From the sequence record OM386665.1: a stretch of 64,000 nucleotides of DNA. The stretch is one strand, 5' to 3'. Below, in pieces: positions 1,873 through 7,700 of this stretch (position 1 is its first letter; each line of letters opens with the position of its first letter). The notes beneath the pieces were generated by a model. The model searched no databases. It had not been told where the DNA came from and saw only the letters and a program-made list of their open reading frames with translations. The position numbers were made by a program, and so were the translations under genes. This stretch comes from Escherichia phage vB_EcoM_ESCO56.

Positions 1873-3489
1873 TCAACGCCTAAGCCCCTCATATGGGTTT
1901 CCTCTCACTAAGTCTGTGTGAGCACCCATTGATGGTGGCTTGAATAATTTAACTTCGTTAAGACTGTTGAAAGCATCACTGGTAGCATCCACTTGGTCAT
2001 CTTTAGTTTTGCCATCACCACAAAAGCCTTCAAGCTCTTGAAAATAAGCTTCGTTCCAACTACCTCTCAAAACTTTTACAAGTCCAGCTTCAGAAGCAGC
2101 AGAAAACCCCGCAAATCGGGTAACTTTATCTTTATTTGTTGGTTTAGCTCTTGCACGATAGCCTTTCTCGGCAAGTTTCCTGATGAGGGATGTTGCGTAG
2201 GATTTACCAGCAGCGCCTGGGTCTTGAGGGATAAAAATACCAGTTCGCTTACCGTCACTTTCAGCAGTCAAATTAATTTGTGTTTCGACTCCAGAGGGTC
2301 TATCTCTAAATCTTACTACATCAATGATATAATAGCAACCGTCTTTTTTAGATTTACCCATCTTAACACCTGCTGTCCAGTCTGGATTAGGGTTAACCTC
2401 AGATGGTAAAGTTGCTGCTAAGTCCCATGCTCTAACATCAAATACATCTTCTGGGAGTGAATCAACAATCTCACACCATTGTCTTTGCCAGTAGTTTGAA
2501 CCTTCTGCACGAGCCTTCCAGTTACCAAAACGAAGTCTTGCAACGTTTACAGGAGTGTTGTTTTCCAACTTACCACGATACTTAGGTTCTAAGAAGTCAA
2601 GAATTGGGTTATCATCAATCGTACCAGAGATAAAGGTGTATGTTTGAGGAATCTCAAGAGGGAACATTTCAAGAATCTTGTCTCTCTCCCAATCAGAAAC
2701 CATCACACCATCATTCATTACATACCAACGAATACGACCACACTTTTCAGGGTCTGGATAACCTTCTTCATCTAAGAATGGTTCTACCCAATCGTAAATA
2801 AAGTGGTCTCTATCTGGGTTCATGGAAATCTTCATGTATGAATCACCATCAGCACCAGAACGTAGACGGGTTTGTAGGTATGAAATCTGTGAAGCAGAGA
2901 AGTGTGTACCTTCATCAAAGTAAATAGCTGAGTATTCAATACCCTGATGACCTTCAGCGTGCTTTTCAAGTTCTAGGTAGGTAAACTTGATAGTTGCCCC
3001 AGAAGGGAATGTGATAGTCATTTTCTGCTCGTGAGGAATCCCACCAAACTTACCAAATAGTTTCTTTGCAGCAGGCCATAAACCACCTTGTAACTGTGTT
3101 GTATTTCGACGGAAATACACAGCATTATAGTTAGGGTCTTCAATAAATCTTAAAGAGTCCATTAACAACGCGGCAGTCTTACCAGCACCAGCAGCACCAC
3201 CATAAAGAACCAAGTCAGCATTAGTGTTTAAAAAGACCTCTTGAGAACCCGGCTGAGGGGCTACATAGTTCTTATCAGTCATCAATTTAAAGATGAGGCG
3301 AACTTGGTCTGGTGTGTATCTTAATAAAGTCAGAATTTGAGTTGGAAGGAATTTAGAGGGGTCTTTACCGAATGATTTAATAATTTCTTTTACTTCATCA
3401 GAAAGCCCCAACTCTCCAGCTAGGACTTTCCTAACATCTTCCACTCGCTTCTGCTTAACAGTATTTAAGTCCATTAAGCGCCTCCGCAA
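1873..3489 (-). CDS. terminase large subunit
   Basis: 538 aa; Walker A P-loop YGGAAGAGKTAALL in N-terminal ATPase region followed by a nuclease-sized C-terminal domain; precedes portal gene. Confidence 0.85.
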   Translation of the reverse strand: MRRRLMDLNTVKQKRVEDVRKVLAGELGLSDEVKEIIKSFGKDPSKFLPTQILTLLRYTPDQVRLIFKLMTDKNYVAPQPGSQEVFLNTNADLVLYGGAAGAGKTAALLMDSLRFIEDPNYNAVYFRRNTTQLQGGLWPAAKKLFGKFGGIPHEQKMTITFPSGATIKFTYLELEKHAEGHQGIEYSAIYFDEGTHFSASQISYLQTRLRSGADGDSYMKISMNPDRDHFIYDWVEPFLDEEGYPDPEKCGRIRWYVMNDGVMVSDWERDKILEMFPLEIPQTYTFISGTIDDNPILDFLEPKYRGKLENNTPVNVARLRFGNWKARAEGSNYWQRQWCEIVDSLPEDVFDVRAWDLAATLPSEVNPNPDWTAGVKMGKSKKDGCYYIIDVVRFRDRPSGVETQINLTAESDGKRTGIFIPQDPGAAGKSYATSLIRKLAEKGYRARAKPTNKDKVTRFAGFSAASEAGLVKVLRGSWNEAYFQELEGFCGDGKTKDDQVDATSDAFNSLNEVKLFKPPSMGAHTDLVRGNPYEGLRR

Positions 3490-3495
3490 ATAGAA

Positions 3496-3696
3496 TTATT
3501 CAGAGTCTGTCGCAGTCTCTTCTTTCTTAACTTCGAACTTTGCATCAACAGCATCAAGAAGTGCATCCATAGATGCTTCTTTAATATCAATACCTGTTGC
3601 TACAGATAATCTATCTGCAATTGCCATGATAGTGTTCTGCATAAATTCTAGCTTTTTATTAGCTTCATAAAGTTCTTTATAAACGTTCTCGCTCAT
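3496..3696 (-). CDS. hypothetical small protein (66 aa)
   Basis: Track ORF 3496..3771 trimmed to internal ATG (MSENVYKELYE...) preceded by GGAGA 7 nt upstream; immediately upstream of terminase. Confidence 0.5.
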   Translation of the reverse strand: MSENVYKELYEANKKLEFMQNTIMAIADRLSVATGIDIKEASMDALLDAVDAKFEVKKEETATDSE

Positions 3697-3918: not shown

Positions 3919-3994
3919 TGGAGAATCCGAAGGGACTTGAACCCTTATAAACCTGTTTTGCAGACAGGCACATATCCATTTCTGTCACGGATTC
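3919..3994 (-). tRNA. tRNA-Cys (anticodon GCA)
   Basis: Hand-folded: acceptor GAATCCG/CGGATTC, anticodon loop CTGCAAA, T-arm AAGGG-TTCAAGT-CCCTT, discriminator U, encoded CCA. Confidence 0.8.
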
Positions 3995-3999
3995 AAAAT

Positions 4000-4092
4000 T
4001 GGAGGAAGATACCAGACTTGAACTGGTACACCGATTTCTCAGCTACTGGCAGTTTAGCAAACTGCTCCCTTACCTTTTAGGGTTAATCTTCC
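4000..4092 (-). tRNA. tRNA-Ser (anticodon GCU), class II with long variable arm
   Basis: Acceptor GGAAGAT/ATCTTCC, 3-bp D-stem, anticodon stem GCAGT/ACTGC with loop TTGCTAA, about 21-nt variable arm, T-loop TTCAAGT, encoded CCA. Confidence 0.7.
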
Positions 4093-4093
4093 A

Positions 4094-4828
4094 TTATCTT
4101 TGTAATGCGCTCTTCATTTCTGGTGTTGCAATAGTATCAATCACACCAGTTTTACAAGCATCATCAAACCAGTCTGGTAAGATACCTGCTAAGAACCCAT
4201 TGATATTCGTTTTAAGGTACTCTGCAATAAGGGCAGCTTCTTCTTCAATCATCTGCACAACTTCATCTGCATAAGCTGTAATCTTTGAGATACCTTCATT
4301 AATCTTACTAACAGCCTGATTAGCTAAATCAGAAATAGTCTCAAGACCCTCATCAATAGCGTCTTGTAAGTCACTTAACACACCGTTAACACTGTCTAGT
4401 GTGCTGTTAATCATGTCAATAGCTTGCTGACCATACTCTGTAGCAACACCCATAATACCACTAAATGGTGTACAACCAACTTGTTCTCCTGCTGCACCCA
4501 TAACATTGGAGTATCCCTTTGCTACCTGCATACGTGATGAAAACTCATCAATAGACTTTTGACCGTAGTCTGTTAGGGTCTTAGTAGTTGCTGTAGTGCT
4601 TGTAAGGCTTGTTGTAAAACTGTTTAGAAGGACTGTTGTAAGTCCAGCAGCAACAAGCTTCTCCTTCATTGTAGGGTCTGTTACAGAGCTAATAGAGCTT
4701 ACAAGTGATGTAGAGGCAGCTACGGTTCCACCGAGAACTGCTGCACCAGTAATAAGTGGGTTAGAAAACCCTCTACCGGTTTTTAAGAGATTAAAAATCT
4801 CCTTACCTTGTTCTGTCATCTCTTTCAT
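4094..4828 (-). CDS. hypothetical protein (Ser/Thr-rich, coiled-coil C-terminus)
   Basis: Track ORF 4094..4876 overlaps the tRNA at 4845-4923; trimmed to ATG at 4828 (MKEMTEQ...) with AAAGGTG RBS. Confidence 0.55.
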   Translation of the reverse strand: MKEMTEQGKEIFNLLKTGRGFSNPLITGAAVLGGTVAASTSLVSSISSVTDPTMKEKLVAAGLTTVLLNSFTTSLTSTTATTKTLTDYGQKSIDEFSSRMQVAKGYSNVMGAAGEQVGCTPFSGIMGVATEYGQQAIDMINSTLDSVNGVLSDLQDAIDEGLETISDLANQAVSKINEGISKITAYADEVVQMIEEEAALIAEYLKTNINGFLAGILPDWFDDACKTGVIDTIATPEMKSALQR

Positions 4829-4844
4829 TAAGCACCTTTGAAAT

Positions 4845-4923
4845 TGGTACTCCATATCGGATTCGAACCGATACATAACACAGATTTTAAGTCTGGCCTC
4901 TCTGCCAATTGGAGTAATGGAGC
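4845..4923 (-). tRNA. tRNA with anticodon UAA (Leu-decoding) but class-I length
   Basis: Acceptor GCTCCAT/ATGGAGT, Leu-like D-arm (3-bp stem, loop CAATTGGCAGA), anticodon loop CTTAAAA, short variable loop, T-arm ATCGG-TTCGAAT-CCGAT, A73, CCA. Confidence 0.65.
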
Positions 4924-4925
4924 AT

Positions 4926-5001
4926 TGGCGGGGGATGTTGGAATTGAACCAACTTCTTCGATTTCAAAGACCGAGGTTTTAACCTTGTAAACTAATCCCC
5001 T
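4926..5001 (-). tRNA. tRNA-Gln (anticodon UUG)
   Basis: Anticodon stem TCGGT/ATCGA with loop CTTTGAA, T-arm GTTGG-TTCAATT-CCAAC, discriminator G; 1:72 apparently unpaired. Confidence 0.75.
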
Positions 5002-5009
5002 TTAAATCT

Positions 5010-5567
5010 TTACTTTCTCAGTGGATGAATAAAGAATGCCAACATAACTCTTTCCCTTGAGAATGCTCTTTCTTCTGGGACAACGCTTTTTAGTTTCCAT
5101 CCAATATAAATTCTCCAGTAAAACTGTTTACCAAAGATTTTAATTGATGGGATAAAAGCGAATAATCCCCAAGCATTGCTATTCCACATTAGGAGATAAC
5201 CAGTCTGATTATCTTCAGGGTCAGAACTTACGTTGATATTACCTTTCCACTTAGTAACATCTTTTACATCTCTTCCTAATACATGGTAAGAGAAGTTATA
5301 AGCTTTGTTTCTCCAGAGCCATCCAACTCTCTGCATGTAGACACCCAGCTTACCAATCTCTCTAATCTTAGCCCAGCGTTTGACGTGGCCTTCATCACCA
5401 TCAATCGGGTTGTCATAGGTCTCCATCCATCTGAATCCAAAAGGTAGATGTCCTTTCTTCTCGCTGTAGAATGGAACCACGAAAGGTGCTAAGATGACTG
5501 CTAGGGTTGCTGCAAATGGTTCTAGTAAAGCTAGGAAAATCCATGAAGCATACTTCAAATATCTCAT
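5010..5567 (-). CDS. hypothetical protein (hydrophobic N-terminus, probable membrane protein)
   Basis: 185 aa ORF with AAGAGG RBS 9 nt upstream of ATG at 5567; N-terminal hydrophobic stretch WIFLALLEPFAATLAVILAPFVVPF. Confidence 0.6.
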   Translation of the reverse strand: MRYLKYASWIFLALLEPFAATLAVILAPFVVPFYSEKKGHLPFGFRWMETYDNPIDGDEGHVKRWAKIREIGKLGVYMQRVGWLWRNKAYNFSYHVLGRDVKDVTKWKGNINVSSDPEDNQTGYLLMWNSNAWGLFAFIPSIKIFGKQFYWRIYIGWKLKSVVPEERAFSRERVMLAFFIHPLRK

Positions 5568-5586
5568 CTAAATAGCCTCTTAAGAT

Positions 5587-5664
5587 TGGTGTTCCAAGAC
5601 GGATTCGAACCGTCACTAATACAAGGTTTGAGCTTGCATCCTCTGCCAATTGGGATACTGGAAC
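5587..5664 (-). tRNA. tRNA with anticodon CAA (Leu-decoding) but class-I length
   Basis: Acceptor GTTCCAG/TTGGAAC, D-arm TCC-CAATTGGCAGA-GGA, anticodon stem GCAAG/CTTGT with loop CTCAAAC, T-arm GACGG-TTCGAAT-CCGTC, A73, CCA. Confidence 0.65.
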
Positions 5665-5665
5665 A

Positions 5666-5740
5666 TGGTACTCACTAAAGGACTTGAACCTTTTTCTTCA
5701 TCTTGTAAGGGTGATGTTTTACCATATAAACTAAGCGAGT
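5666..5740 (-). tRNA. tRNA-Val (anticodon UAC)
   Basis: Acceptor ACTCGCT/AGTGAGT, D-stem GTTT/AAAC, anticodon loop CTTACAA, T-arm AAAGG-TTCAAGT-CCTTT, A73, CCA. Confidence 0.75.
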
Positions 5741-5835
5741 GTAGAAGAGGTCTGAAGTTGTGCCGCTAACTCAACTCCGTGGAATTTGTTACGGTCTTCA
5801 GTTGACACCAGCGGTCTTTCACTTGACCTCTGAAT

Positions 5836-5912
5836 TGGTGCTGCTCACAGGACTTGAACCTGCATTTCCATCCTTACAAGGGATGTGTAATAGCCAATTA
5901 TACGAAAGCAGC
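5836..5912 (-). tRNA. tRNA-Thr (anticodon UGU)
   Basis: Acceptor GCTGCTT/GAGCAGC, anticodon stem CATCC/GGATG with loop CTTGTAA, T-loop TTCAAGT, A73, CCA. Confidence 0.75.
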
Positions 5913-5919
5913 ATTAATT

Positions 5920-5996
5920 TGGTACACCTAGAGAGATTCGAACTCACACTGAGCAGATTCTAAGTCTGCTGCCTCTACCAGTTGGGCTATAGGTGC
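5920..5996 (-). tRNA. tRNA with anticodon UAG (Leu-decoding) but class-I length
   Basis: Acceptor GCACCTA/TAGGTGT, D-arm GCC-CAACTGGTAGA-GGC, anticodon stem GCAGA/TCTGC with loop CTTAGAA, T-loop TTCGAAT, A73, CCA. Confidence 0.65.
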
Positions 5997-6074
5997 ATTA
6001 AATCTTTTTAGAGAACTTCTAAGAACCTAAGCAACAAGGTTCCACAACAAGCTGTAATAACCTTAGAAGCCCTC

Positions 6075-6250
6075 TAAAAAGACCTAAAAAGGTCTTTGCA
6101 TAGTCTTGTTTAATCCGGTGACTAGAACCTTTGGAGAGCTTGATATTATCTCTTCTCCGTGACACCTGCTAGGTGCTTTATGAGTGTGTACGACAATACA
6201 CGCGGGATACCAAAGCAACACCCTAATGAAGCTTGGCTTTAAATCTTATT
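6075..6250 (-). ncRNA. candidate small structured RNA between tRNA genes, ending in an intrinsic terminator
   Basis: No tRNA fold found. Minus-sense sequence carries hairpins GTGTA-TTGTCG-TACAC, CACC-TAGCA-GGTG, GGAGA..TCTCC, then AGACC-TTTTT-AGGTCT followed by TTTT (6075-6096). 5' end not defined. Confidence 0.3.
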
Positions 6251-6253
6251 AGG

Positions 6254-6341
6254 CGGTAAGTAAAGGAGTCGAACCCTCACCGTATCTCTACAGTGGCAAC
6301 TGTTTTCAAGACAGTTTGGCTACCATTAGCCGCTACCTACC
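6254..6341 (-). tRNA. tRNA-Ser (anticodon UGA), class II
   Basis: Acceptor GGTAGGT/ACTTACC, anticodon stem ACTGT/ACAGT with loop CTTGAAA, about 20-nt variable arm, T-loop TTCGACT, G73; CCA not fully encoded. Confidence 0.7.
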
Positions 6342-6354
6342 CCTAATAAGACTT

Positions 6355-6437
6355 TGGCATGGGACGGAGGAGTTGAACCCCTTTGAAACGGTGTTGGAAG
6401 CCGTTGCTCATGCCTTAGAGTCTTAACATCGTCCCAT
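6355..6437 (-). tRNA. tRNA candidate, anticodon probably CCA (Trp); D region about 7 nt longer than canonical
   Basis: Acceptor ATGGGAC/GTCCCAT, T-loop TTCAACT, G73, CCA; anticodon register inferred from distance to T-loop (loop TTCCAAC); D-arm could not be folded canonically. Confidence 0.4.
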
Positions 6438-6580
6438 ACTATAATTCGAAGCTTACCGTATTATCTCAACACTGTAAAGCCCCTTCTCAGATTATTTACA
6501 TGTTCTGGAAAACATGAGATACAGACCACCTCCCTACAGGAAGACCCGCTTAGGTCGTCTAAGTAATCTGCTAACTAAAT

Positions 6581-6662
6581 TGGTCGAGGCGGCAGGACTC
6601 GAACCCGCATACTCCACTTACTCGGTTAACGTCTGTTTAGAAGACAGATGAGATACGCCCCG
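6581..6662 (-). tRNA. tRNA-like element (acceptor and T-arm present, anticodon-like loop CUUCUAA; no D-arm resolved)
   Basis: Acceptor CGGGGCG/CGCCTCG with one G-U, T-arm GCGGG-TTCGAGT-CCTGC, A73, CCA; only internal hairpin is TCTGT-CTTCTAA-ACAGA placed too far 5' for a canonical tRNA. Confidence 0.3.
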
Positions 6663-6910
6663 TAATTATCTTTAAAGACTCTCTTAGAAAGCCCTTAAAG
6701 ATGCCCACCTTATTAATCATACCGTGGGCTAGTACGCCAAATTCTTTGATGAGGGATTGGAAGACCTCACTGGTGTTTAGCCTATCAAGCTACTGCCAGA
6801 AAAACATTGTCGTTTGCATTTATTTTAAATTTGCAAAATAGACGCTACGCAACGAAAACTAAGGGTACTATAAAGTGGTCACATCACTATTCTGCTACAC
6901 TTCCATTAAA

Positions 6911-7050
6911 TTATCTTTGTAGATAAGCTACCCAGACTTGCTTAAGGTCTGTAGCGATGTGACTTTTTGGGTTTAAATCTAGAATTTACCCTTTCACCCT
7001 TTGTGGTCGCATACTCACAGGTAAGCTTAATAACTTATCTACAAAGATAA
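6911..7050. repeat. long inverted repeat (17-bp perfect arms, about 106-bp spacer) in tRNA-array spacer
   Basis: TTATCTTTGTAGATAAG at 6911-6927 is the exact reverse complement of CTTATCTACAAAGATAA at 7034-7050. Confidence 0.8.
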
Positions 7051-7098
7051 TTACCAGACCGTTGTTTATCATCTTAACTAGATATCTCATAAAGTGTT

Positions 7099-7186
7099 TG
7101 GTGTGCCGTGTAGGAGTCGAACCTACCGAGTCTCAATGACAAGGGATTTACAGTCCCCACCGCTACCATCTACGGGATAACGACAC
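7099..7186 (-). tRNA. tRNA-Tyr (anticodon GUA), class II
   Basis: Acceptor GTGTCGT/ACGGCAC, anticodon stem GGGGA/TCCCT with loop CTGTAAA, about 14-nt variable arm, T-arm GTAGG-TTCGACT-CCTAC, A73, CCA. Confidence 0.8.
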
Positions 7187-7255
7187 ATTTAATTTCTATT
7201 CAGGCTAAGGACTTGCACCTTACAAATCGGTGAGCAATCGCTTCTCTCCTGAATT

Positions 7256-7332
7256 TGGCGGTTAGTCAGGGATTCGAACCCTGTGCCATTCGCTTAACAG
7301 GCGACCGCACATACCTTATGTGCTTCCTAACC
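7256..7332 (-). tRNA. tRNA-Asn (anticodon GUU)
   Basis: D-stem GCAC/GTGC, anticodon loop CTGTTAA, T-arm CAGGG-TTCGAAT-CCCTG, G73, CCA. Confidence 0.8.
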
Positions 7333-7416
7333 ATGTTTAGTATTACCAGACCGTATCTTTCAATTTTTCCGCTAAAAATTTAATAAACATTGCTGTAAAC
7401 GGTCTTCTGTAAAATT

Positions 7417-7493
7417 TGGAGGCGGGTGCAGGAGTCGAACCTGCCGATACCATGCTAATGAGACATGTGAGACGCCCTTTCTCTATACCCGCA
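7417..7493 (-). tRNA. tRNA with anticodon CAU (Met, fMet or Ile2)
   Basis: Anticodon stem CATGT/GCATG with loop CTCATTA (position 37 is U, unusual), T-arm GCAGG-TTCGACT-CCTGC, CCA. Confidence 0.65.
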
Positions 7494-7623
7494 ATTCTTA
7501 ATGACCAGACCAAATCTCTTCTTTGTCCGATTTACCTTCAGATGAATAAGATTAAGTTTGCTGTAATTGGTCTTCTGTCAAAACTGGCGTTCCAGAAGGG
7601 ATTTGTCTACTGGAACATTAATT

Positions 7624-7700
7624 TGGTCTCTGTTGGAGGACTTGAACCTCCGGCCTTACCGCCCCAAACGGAACGCTCTACCAAGCTGAGCTAAACAGAG
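7624..7700 (-). tRNA. tRNA-Pro (anticodon UGG)
   Basis: Acceptor CTCTGTT/AACAGAG, D-stem GCTC/GAGC, anticodon loop TTTGGGG (G37), T-arm GGAGG-TTCAAGT-CCTCC, A73, CCA. Confidence 0.8.

Follow-up and report, generated by a model that had tools for sequence, protein, structure and literature searches.

What occupies the two long stretches that contain no tRNA gene within the tRNA array of a Felix O1-like phage? Phage tRNA arrays are regarded as tools for codon supply and for escape from tRNA-targeting host nucleases, and the Felix O1-like phages are widely used in Salmonella typing, biocontrol and therapy, with hundreds of genomes sequenced. We address the question in a 64,000-nucleotide stretch of Escherichia phage vB_EcoM_ESCO56 (OM386665.1; hereafter the window, which belongs to Felixounavirus), in which one such gap separates tRNA-Thr from tRNA-Val (gap 1) and a larger one separates tRNA-Ser(tga) from tRNA-Leu(tag) (gap 2). 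Both gaps are very probably functional structured elements that act at the RNA level. That both are also stable, independent RNAs is, judged from sequence, a tentative proposition that falls slightly short of an even chance. On balance we lean towards a composite reading, in which the gaps hold functional structured non-tRNA RNA modules that are co-transcribed with the tRNAs and are in part excised as small RNAs.

The array comprises 13 tRNA genes identified by ARAGORN at positions 3919-7700, all on the minus strand, and the same array is annotated in the GenBank records of Escherichia phage vB_EcoM_ESCO50 and of Felix O1. Identity over the 4-kb stretch round the gaps is 99% with ESCO50, and 95-98% with Felix O1 and with upwards of 200 further Felixounavirus genomes. 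An initial annotation of the window, made from the letters alone, had reported two tRNA-free gaps; both ARAGORN and Rfam bear this out, and the limits of gap 2 are now refined (Table 1). No tRNA is found in either gap by ARAGORN in its default, relaxed (-ps, -ps80), intron and mitochondrial modes or by the Rfam tRNA model (RF00005) at E<=10, and neither contains a trace of a cloverleaf D, anticodon or T arm, relaxed thresholds included. Nor is a known RNA family recognized at the gathering threshold in three Rfam scans, two of them made on the gaps alone with lax filters, the only sub-threshold matches being plant miRNA precursors over hairpin H6 of gap 2 (29-30 bits against a threshold of 52). 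In the records examined both gaps are blank or are covered by short open reading frames (ORFs) that overlap tRNA genes and carry 'hypothetical protein' labels. The tRNAs of Felix O1 fall into groups, the second of which begins at tRNA-Leu(tag), and gap 2 coincides with the boundary of the first two groups (PMC3185647).

Read in the tRNA sense, gap 1 folds into a rod of four helices, P1-P4, with a minimum free energy (MFE) of -30.7 kcal/mol (z -3.2) that is equalled by 1 of 200 shuffled sequences, and the same helices are recovered independently by RNAalifold. The paired ends that had been pointed out in the initial annotation form P1 (AGAGGTC with GACCTCT in the DNA). The direct repeat AAGACCG that it had listed beside them is present, at 5812-5818 and 5792-5798, but carries no weight: by a rough estimate about one repeated 7-mer is expected within 95 nt, and the first copy is not kept in Avunavirus. 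Among 27 distinct sequences 97.8% of cells are paired. Pair 8-88 of P1 is G-C in most sequences and U-A in Avunavirus, with one G·U case; pair 24-72 of P2 is G-C in most and A-U in locus L044, with a G·U intermediate in L075; and pair 37-61 of P3 changes from U-A to U·G in Avunavirus and in L050, a more divergent Ounavirinae-like metagenome contig. Two pairs have undergone independent double changes, one of them with the G·U intermediate seen, and the pairs of P3 and P4 change solely to G·U. The covariation score is reached by none of 500 shuffles and slid controls score far lower. A 27-nt block that takes in P3, the unpaired GAAGA, P4 and its loop is identical between the Felix-like and Avunavirus copies, and we found a single variant of the P4 loop, AACAAAUACC in L080. 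The element begins 4 nt past the CCA of tRNA-Thr and stops 5 nt short of tRNA-Val.

A BLAST search places gap 1 in 259 phage records, and in 235 of these the identity is >=95%. Two matches (81-83% identity) lie in Vequintavirinae, in Avunavirus Av-05 and TH18, where the element follows tRNA-Gly and precedes two ORFs and so has a different tRNA neighbour from that in Felix-like arrays. When Av-05 is compared with the window, gap 1 is the best-conserved segment that they share (83%), the shared tRNAs being 75-83% identical (over 35-108 nt) and the shared DUF7338 gene 74%. Covariance model R1, built for gap 1, finds exactly one copy per genome in Felix-like phages (including Mooglevirus- and Suspvirus-type relatives; 111-121 bits) and in Avunavirus and contig L050 (85-91 bits), and has no match in T4, RB43, JS10 or Kolesnikvirus Panisse. 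In Kolesnikvirus the tRNA-Thr and tRNA-Val genes are separated by 6 nt, without the element. The sharing of gap 1 by unrelated phage subfamilies, with identical loops, argues for what may be an autonomous, portable function.

Several candidate relationships of gap 1 were rejected. The 19-mer GAAGACCGTAACAAATTCC at first sight defines a wider metagenome family, but about half of its 34 matches are the reverse complement of the glutamine-amidotransferase motif GICYGLQL in unrelated genes; the spurious loci are environmental contigs (L043, L048, L054, L057, L058, L062, L066, L068-L070, L072, L074 and L076), and the coincidence is a trap in pattern-based searches for homologues. A degenerate loop pattern searched in viral contigs gave only chance matches and one further Felix-like variant. 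An obligate link between gap 1 and the DUF7338 gene does not hold, for the two co-occur in Felix-like phages and Av-05 but L050 keeps gap 1 without room for the gene. A hammerhead reading of CUGAAGA...GAAA fails on direct reading of the sequence topology, the junction being two-way, not three-way, with no GAAA after stem II, and Rfam is silent. Neither gap behaves as a repeated mobile element: each genome has one R1 match and one match to R2, the corresponding model of the gap 2 core, and no consistent duplication flanks P1 in the Felix or Av-05 context.

Gap 2 is found in 253 records, from which alignments of 25 and then 38 distinct homologues were made. The 'several stable hairpins' of the initial annotation are confirmed as H1-H4, T and H6, the whole folding with an MFE of -72.8 kcal/mol (z -3.0; none of 200 shuffles equally good), and the gap splits, 5' to 3' in the tRNA sense, into five parts: a linker, a core, T, H6 and a leader. 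The 45-nt linker comes in at least three versions of unrelated sequence, in phages whose flanking DNA on either side is 95-99% identical, which suggests that it has been swapped repeatedly by recombination at this point. The core is near-invariant in Felixounavirus, in Mooglevirus- and Suspvirus-type relatives and in L050, with substitutions that lie in loops or preserve pairs. In H1 the relatives show loop and 3'-flank substitutions and 2-nt indels. Two pairs of H2 vary one-sidedly (G·U to A-U and A-U to G·U), and the window's own difference is in the loop. The stems of H3 are invariant save for one G·U at pair 52-77, variation being confined to the apical loop (AAU, AGU, AGC or GAU), and H4, with an almost invariant loop, has a compensatory change from U-A to C-G in L050. 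Of the cells in the complete structure 98.9% pair; six pairs are changed on both sides (five in H6 and one in H4) against 1.1 ± 0.7 in shuffles, with none of 500 reaching six, and slid controls give at most two. R2 finds the core in Felix-like phages and L050 only, and not in the Avunavirus, Kolesnikvirus or T4-like loci tested. Both elements are missing from Kolesnikvirus, T4, RB43 and JS10, and the gap 2 core is missing from Avunavirus; the two are therefore discrete acquired modules. A loop-loop pairing between the H4 loop (AACAA) and the apex of H6 (UUGUU) was considered and rejected, since the loop variants of L030 and L050 are uncompensated.

The larger gap had been thought to end in an intrinsic terminator. 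The hairpin exists (T; AAAGACC at 6091-6097 with GGTCTTT at 6078-6084, and a T-run ending at 6076), but it does not end the gap, of which 79 nt (6075-5997) remain. Its energy is -9.3 kcal/mol (z -2.3; 5 of 200 shuffles equally good) and 99.6% of its cells pair; variation is unrestricted in the loop and, in the stem, takes two pairs solely to G·U or U·G. In L050 the U-run is UUUGU, matched by a change from A to C on the opposite arm of H6. A riboswitch or transcription attenuator would call for an antiterminator helix that forms upstream and excludes the terminator; for this RNAalifold offers a pairing of GGUU upstream of H4 with GACC of the T 5' arm, which amounts to 4 bp and loses one pair in L050, while the stronger competitor, the extended H6 described below, lies downstream. 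Efficient termination at T would leave about ten downstream genes, tRNAs and two coding sequences, in need of a promoter, and the terminator table of the Felix O1 genome paper has no entry at this position. The start of the second Felix O1 tRNA group at tRNA-Leu(tag) does speak for some role of T at a boundary. We take T to be a leaky terminator or a 3' hairpin with a protective role, and no more than that.

Downstream of T the long hairpin H6 folds better than shuffled sequence (6005-6082: z -4.5; 0 of 200 equally good). Five of its pairs are changed on both sides and many more by wobble, with 98.3-98.6% of cells paired. It can be extended by pairing UAGGUCUUU, which is the 3' arm of T, with AAAGAUUUA, an arrangement that the observed substitutions fit equally well. 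This extended form has the minimum energy in the window, L050 and L030, although, lying downstream of T, the extension cannot block termination during transcription. With the extension the duplex has 26 pairs (98.6% of cells paired), long enough for an RNase III site, of which an imperfect duplex of ~20 bp or more is expected. Folded on the tRNA-sense strand, the T and H6 region reaches -37.6 kcal/mol, against -28.0 kcal/mol on the other, many of its pairs being G·U. Between H6 and tRNA-Leu(tag) lies an AU-rich leader, and leaders of the same AAAGAU(A)AU type stand directly before tRNA or tRNA-like starts at 4092, 6662 and 6904 and before the tRNA-Lys of Av-05, in each case after a long non-tRNA stretch. 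The leader pattern AAAGATAATTTAA, with up to two mismatches, has 19 occurrences in the window where 7.3 are expected, and the start at 6662 is also preceded by an H6-like 16-bp hairpin (6663-6705). Between the GATAAT-like string and the tRNA start lie 0, 3 or 5 nt, and this variable spacing fits a processing leader better than a promoter. On this model H6 and the leader are probably a processing signal.

In three loci (L079, L022 and L030) an HNH homing-endonuclease ORF lies exactly between the leader and tRNA-Leu, with H6 and the leader intact. In L079 the ORF occupies 1149-1601 on the minus strand and encodes 150 aa. The ribosome-binding region of the HNH ORF, GGGAGATTGAC, is the same as the first 11 nt of the alternative allele of tRNA-Leu(tag) seen in Felix O1; the 5' end of this tRNA comes in two alleles, GCACCUAUAGCC (in the window) and GGGAGAUUGAYGG. 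The arrangement suggests intron-less homing at the tRNA-Leu(tag) gene.

Taken together, the gaps are conserved about as well as the flanking tRNAs. In the more distant Mooglevirus- and Suspvirus-type relatives identity is 90% for gap 1 and 92% for the gap 2 core, by a coarse measure of matches over query length that gives 85-100% for the tRNAs and 76% for a neighbouring coding sequence. Structure prediction and alignment to related phages agree that substitutions preserve the helices, being compensatory or of the wobble type when read on the tRNA-sense strand, and every candidate ORF is interrupted by indels of 1-2 nt in close relatives. BLAST against 5,426 E. coli genomes gives no match to either element, and a single exact core word from each (a 20-mer of gap 2 and a 24-mer of gap 1) is absent from 185,579 species genomes, so that host origin or mimicry is rejected. 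What is upheld of the initial suggestion is that both gaps are more than passive spacer, being conserved, noncoding, maintained in their helices and placed like small RNAs of T4; the last 80-90 nt of gap 2 look like a recurring pre-tRNA leader module and not like a piece of a small RNA.

How do the two elements compare with known systems? To our knowledge no function has been assigned, over some fifty years, to RNAs of the T4 RNAC and RNAD type in phage tRNA arrays. T4 species 1 RNA is a substrate of RNase III in vitro. RNAC and RNAD (species 1 and 2 RNAs) are small (119-139 nt), structured non-tRNA RNAs, encoded among the tRNA genes of a phage and on the same strand as these; the two gap elements, which are not tRNAs either, are placed in the same way. 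Transcripts of the tRNA region include the T4 RNAs, for which no function is known (PMC3014915; PMC9697503). Homology was considered and rejected: both T4 RNAs were folded and their locus searched with R1 and R2, and the models match nothing in the T4 (L040), JS10 and RB43 loci at E<=10. RNAC also has a canonical T-arm, CCGGGUUCGAAUCCCGG, whereas the gap elements have none, and accumulation has been demonstrated for the T4 RNAs whereas that of the gap elements is a prediction. In the T4-like phage JS10 an rnaD homologue and tRNAs lie beside a DUF7338 gene, and a DUF7338 gene is also found inside the array of the window. By analogy, the RNAs of gap 1 and of the gap 2 core are probably released by excision as small RNAs, positional analogues, though not homologues, of RNAC and RNAD.

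Other comparisons are less close in one respect or another. Phage pseudo-tRNAs and tRNA-like minihelices occupy inter-tRNA slots too, and the 7 bp of P1 are the length of an acceptor stem, but the gaps have no D, anticodon or T arms and ARAGORN and Rfam fail at all thresholds tried. H6 resembles RNase III/E processing hairpins, such as the sites of the T7 early region, in being a long imperfect duplex followed by an AU-rich single strand upstream of the RNA that is released; unlike simple RNase III sites, which do not need it, H6 keeps an invariant apical UUGUUGCU. Hfq-type bacterial small RNAs share with the gap 2 core a make-up of multiple hairpins, a conserved loop that stays single-stranded and a U-run behind a 3' hairpin, but the core has no promoter of its own by scan, a weak terminator (3 G-C, U5) and no evident host or phage target. 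GOLLD and ROOL are associated with tRNA genes and, like the gap elements, are phage-borne structured RNAs of unknown function that co-locate with them, but they are 500-800 nt long and are Rfam families, with no such match in the gaps.

The alternative that survives best, although we consider it unlikely, is that the elements act in cis only, guiding RNase III, RNase E or RNase P or preventing misfolding of the tRNAs, and are degraded after cleavage with no stable product and no role in trans. In E. coli tRNA operons, cuts by RNase E in AU-rich spacers separate the tRNAs, and in gap 2 a duplex of at least 26 bp stands directly before an AU-rich leader and a tRNA. The recurrence of similar leaders, and of one H6-like hairpin (6663-6705), before other tRNA or tRNA-like starts points the same way, as does the folding of other array spacers into hairpins, some of them paralogous. 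Conservation of ~110 nt at almost every position, however, exceeds the need of a plain processing hairpin, and the loops are identical across phage subfamilies while the stems change. Kolesnikvirus, moreover, processes Thr-Val with a 6-nt spacer and without the element, and in Avunavirus gap 1 stands in another array setting, into which it was carried or in which it was retained.

Signals that act at the DNA level are very unlikely to explain the gaps, whether as a real terminator closing the first subcluster, a hidden promoter in H6 or the leader, or target or recombination sites for homing endonucleases. The position of gap 2 exactly at the Felix O1 tRNA group boundary (PMC3185647) counts in favour of such signals; against them, the terminator table of the Felix O1 paper has nothing there. 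On direct reading, weak -35-like and -10-like strings can be seen in the conserved TTGTTGCT and in the leader; a scan nevertheless finds no sigma-70-type promoter in or after gap 2, and the varying GATAAT-like spacing (0, 3 or 5 nt) is unlike a fixed transcription start. An HNH gene does insert right after the leader in L079, L022 and L030, but the compensatory changes and the G·U asymmetry point to a constraint on RNA and not on DNA.

That the gaps are decayed tRNA genes or neutral remnants, which look conserved through close kinship, is highly improbable. Felix-like genomes are 95-99% identical overall, and aberrant tRNA-like sequences do occur elsewhere in the array (6359-6436, 6584-6662 and 7187-7255); the gaps, however, have no trace of a cloverleaf or T-arm at relaxed thresholds, the 45-nt linker has been replaced several times beside an invariant gap 2 core, gap 1 is more conserved between subfamilies than genuine tRNAs, and the helices show compensatory changes. 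A small protein encoded by an annotated short ORF (Felix O1 ORF102 and ORF107; wV8 51 and 51A) is scarcely credible, for although minus-strand ORFs of 45 aa (6084-6221) and 48 aa (6019-6165) and a plus-strand ORF of 67 aa (5760-5963) exist, and several records label the region 'hypothetical protein', the GTG starts lie in variable sequence or overlap tRNA genes, 1-2-nt indels in close relatives break every frame, and the core is invariant at all three codon positions, a non-coding pattern.

A number of observations nevertheless weigh against our view of the gaps as functional RNA modules. The relatives compared are close, so independent substitution events are few, and the shuffle control inflates significance for related sequences. 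Variation in gap 1 is scarce, about two independent compensatory events backing its fold, and the Av-05 copy folded alone is unremarkable (z -1.4). H1, H2 and H3 are without compensatory events, H2 having just its two one-sided G·U changes. The 'intrinsic terminator' of the initial annotation turns out to be weak, with a stem of 8 bp containing 3 G-C pairs followed by U5, and is not called by a consensus terminator scan; the extended H6 competes with it and is slightly more stable (-31.2 against -29.5 kcal/mol). No sigma-70-type promoter was detected in or after gap 2 by the promoter scan, complements of the invariant loops occur in the window at chance frequency only, and the literature searched holds no transcript or RNA-end data for any Felixounavirus.

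Returning to the composite reading, the data show conservation, structure that belongs to one strand and is maintained by selection, a modular make-up, no coding potential and no occurrence in host genomes; beyond this we infer that the two elements would be transcribed and excised and that their products may be stable and may have some role in trans. Both modules would be transcribed on the minus strand within a polycistronic tRNA precursor, starting from promoter-like sites upstream of tRNA-Pro, and would be selected at the RNA level. Because the gap 1 element lies so few nucleotides from both of its neighbours, it would be released by the enzymes that process them: RNase P at the 5' end of tRNA-Val, together with 3'-end processing of tRNA-Thr, would yield an RNA of ~90 nt, whose base-paired ends would protect it against exonucleases, by a logic like that for T4 RNAC and RNAD. 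Since its loops (GAAGA and AACAAAUUCC) are invariant, it would probably work by binding a specific partner, either protein or RNA, and, more speculatively, it could possibly function in the conflict over host defences that target tRNA. In gap 2 the core (H1-H4), capped by T and the U-run, would give a small RNA of ~130-170 nt, with T acting as a leaky terminator and/or as the protective 3' hairpin of that RNA. H6 and the leader would then be the entry for RNase III and/or RNase E into the subcluster that begins with tRNA-Leu(tag), and the linker would be disposable.

Table 1. Positions of the two gaps, their parts and the adjoining tRNA genes in the window
Feature	Position	Strand	Description	Basis
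tRNA-Val(tac)	5666-5740	-	downstream neighbour of gap 1	ARAGORN, Rfam
Gap 1	5741-5835	-	95 nt, tRNA-Thr to tRNA-Val	
Gap 1 element	5746-5831	-	~86-nt rod, helices P1-P4	MFE, RNAalifold, covariance model R1
P1	AGAGGUC 5825-5831 / GACCUCU 5746-5752	-	terminal helix, 7 bp	fold and covariation
P2	CCGCU 5810-5814 / AGCGG 5763-5767	-		fold and covariation
P3	UCAACU 5800-5805 / AGUUGA 5771-5776	-	unpaired GAAGA 5795-5799 after 5' arm	
P4	5777-5794	-	hairpin CCGU/ACGG; 10-nt loop AACAAAUUCC at 5781-5790	
tRNA-Thr(tgt)	5836-5912	-	upstream neighbour of gap 1	ARAGORN, Rfam
tRNA-Leu(tag)	5920-5996	-	downstream neighbour of gap 2, first tRNA of next subcluster	ARAGORN, Rfam
Gap 2	5997-6251	-	255 nt, tRNA-Ser(tga) to tRNA-Leu(tag)	
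AU-rich leader	5997-6007	-	AAAGAUUUAAU, directly 5' of tRNA-Leu(tag)	
H6	6008-6077, extendable to 5999-6086	-	long hairpin; apical stretch UUGUUGCU conserved at 6030-6037	
T	6076-6097	-	AAAGACC-loop-GGUCUUU then U-run; weak terminator candidate	fold, alignment
Core	~6205-6099	-	~110-125 nt, hairpins H1-H4	near-invariant in alignment
H4	6099-6125	-	CUAGUC/GACUA(U)G; 14-nt loop ACCGGAUUAAACAA at 6106-6119	
H3	6133-6158	-	GGAGA/UCUCC and inner GAU/AUC helix	alignment
H2	6162-6176	-	GCACCU/AGGUGU; 100% of cells paired	
H1	6186-6201	-	GUGUA/UACAC; 95.5% of cells paired	
Variable linker	6206-6251	-	directly 3' of tRNA-Ser(tga)	
tRNA-Ser(tga)	6252-6341	-	upstream neighbour of gap 2	ARAGORN, Rfam
Recurrent leader	4089-4101, 5997-6007, 6663-6680, 6905-6922; L003 4150-4175	-	AAAGAU(A)AU(UUAAU)	pattern

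The array has other unusual features, all on the minus strand. The segment at 6359-6436 is a cloverleaf-like tRNA mimic that default ARAGORN misses and in which its relaxed and mitochondrial modes call overlapping 'tRNAs'; its acceptor helix is long, UUCAACU resembles a T-loop, and an arm of anticodon type (AACGG/CCGUU) closes a loop of 9 nt, CUUCCAACA. The 3' portion (6352-6402) matches positions 3446-3497 of the Av-05 locus (L003) at 77% identity and is thus conserved across subfamilies. The segment at 6584-6662 scores 33.4 bits with the Rfam tRNA model, against a gathering threshold of 29, without an ARAGORN call; it combines a T-arm and a UCU-bearing anticodon arm with an extra arm and a D region that is aberrant, and the same slot is a normal tRNA-Arg(tct) in L050, L079 and L080, so that it is probably a degenerate or unusual tRNA-Arg. 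In the spacer between tRNA-Asn and tRNA-Tyr, 7187-7255 forms a minihelix (z -3.0) with a T-arm-like AAGGUGCAAGUCCUU and a terminal helix UUCAGG/CCUGAA, and looks like a truncated tRNA. The Pro-Met and Met-Asn spacers (7342-7419 and 7501-7587) contain paralogous hairpins, ACAGAAGACCnnUUACAGCAA ... nnGGUCUGGUAAU, whose stems differ compensatorily (ACCGU/ACGGU and ACCAA/UUGGU), with a third copy of the 3' half at 7050-7066; the string GAAGACCGU of these hairpins resembles the centre of gap 1.

The tRNA content of the array varies between near-identical phages, as judged from the interval between tRNA-Thr and tRNA-Leu(tag): the two genes are 7 nt apart in the window (5913-5919), are separated by tRNA-Gly and tRNA-Ala in ESCO50, and have Gly, Ala and Lys tRNAs and an ORF between them in Felix O1. 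Two protein genes of unknown function lie in the array, at 5010-5567 and 4094-4876 on the minus strand, and encode members of DUF7338 and DUF7217 respectively. DUF7338 (PF24027) is labelled 'holin' in some records; the protein is 78% identical to the Av-05 copy, which is encoded downstream of gap 1, and ~55-60% identical to products of genes of many T4-like phages, among which the JS10 homologue lies directly after tRNA-Arg and the rnaD homologue.

The two elements are new, unannotated RNA motifs of a kind that is already known, namely the non-tRNA small RNAs and leader structures of phage tRNA clusters. It is quite improbable, given the sequence evidence, that both RNAs are trans-acting effectors and not processing by-products, serving as decoys or inhibitors of host systems that attack tRNAs or sense phage RNA and supplied by the operon that also carries the replacement tRNAs, or that H1-H4 with T and H6 form a sensor that sets read-through. 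Such a sensor, if real, would govern passage from the first to the second tRNA subcluster, the latter with the DUF7338 and DUF7217 genes, and on either account a classic phage group would have yielded RNA families that are new in kind and in function. What the analysis provides for the Felix O1-like phages is two compact RNA motifs with covariance models, a cleaner genome annotation and tractable targets for deletion.

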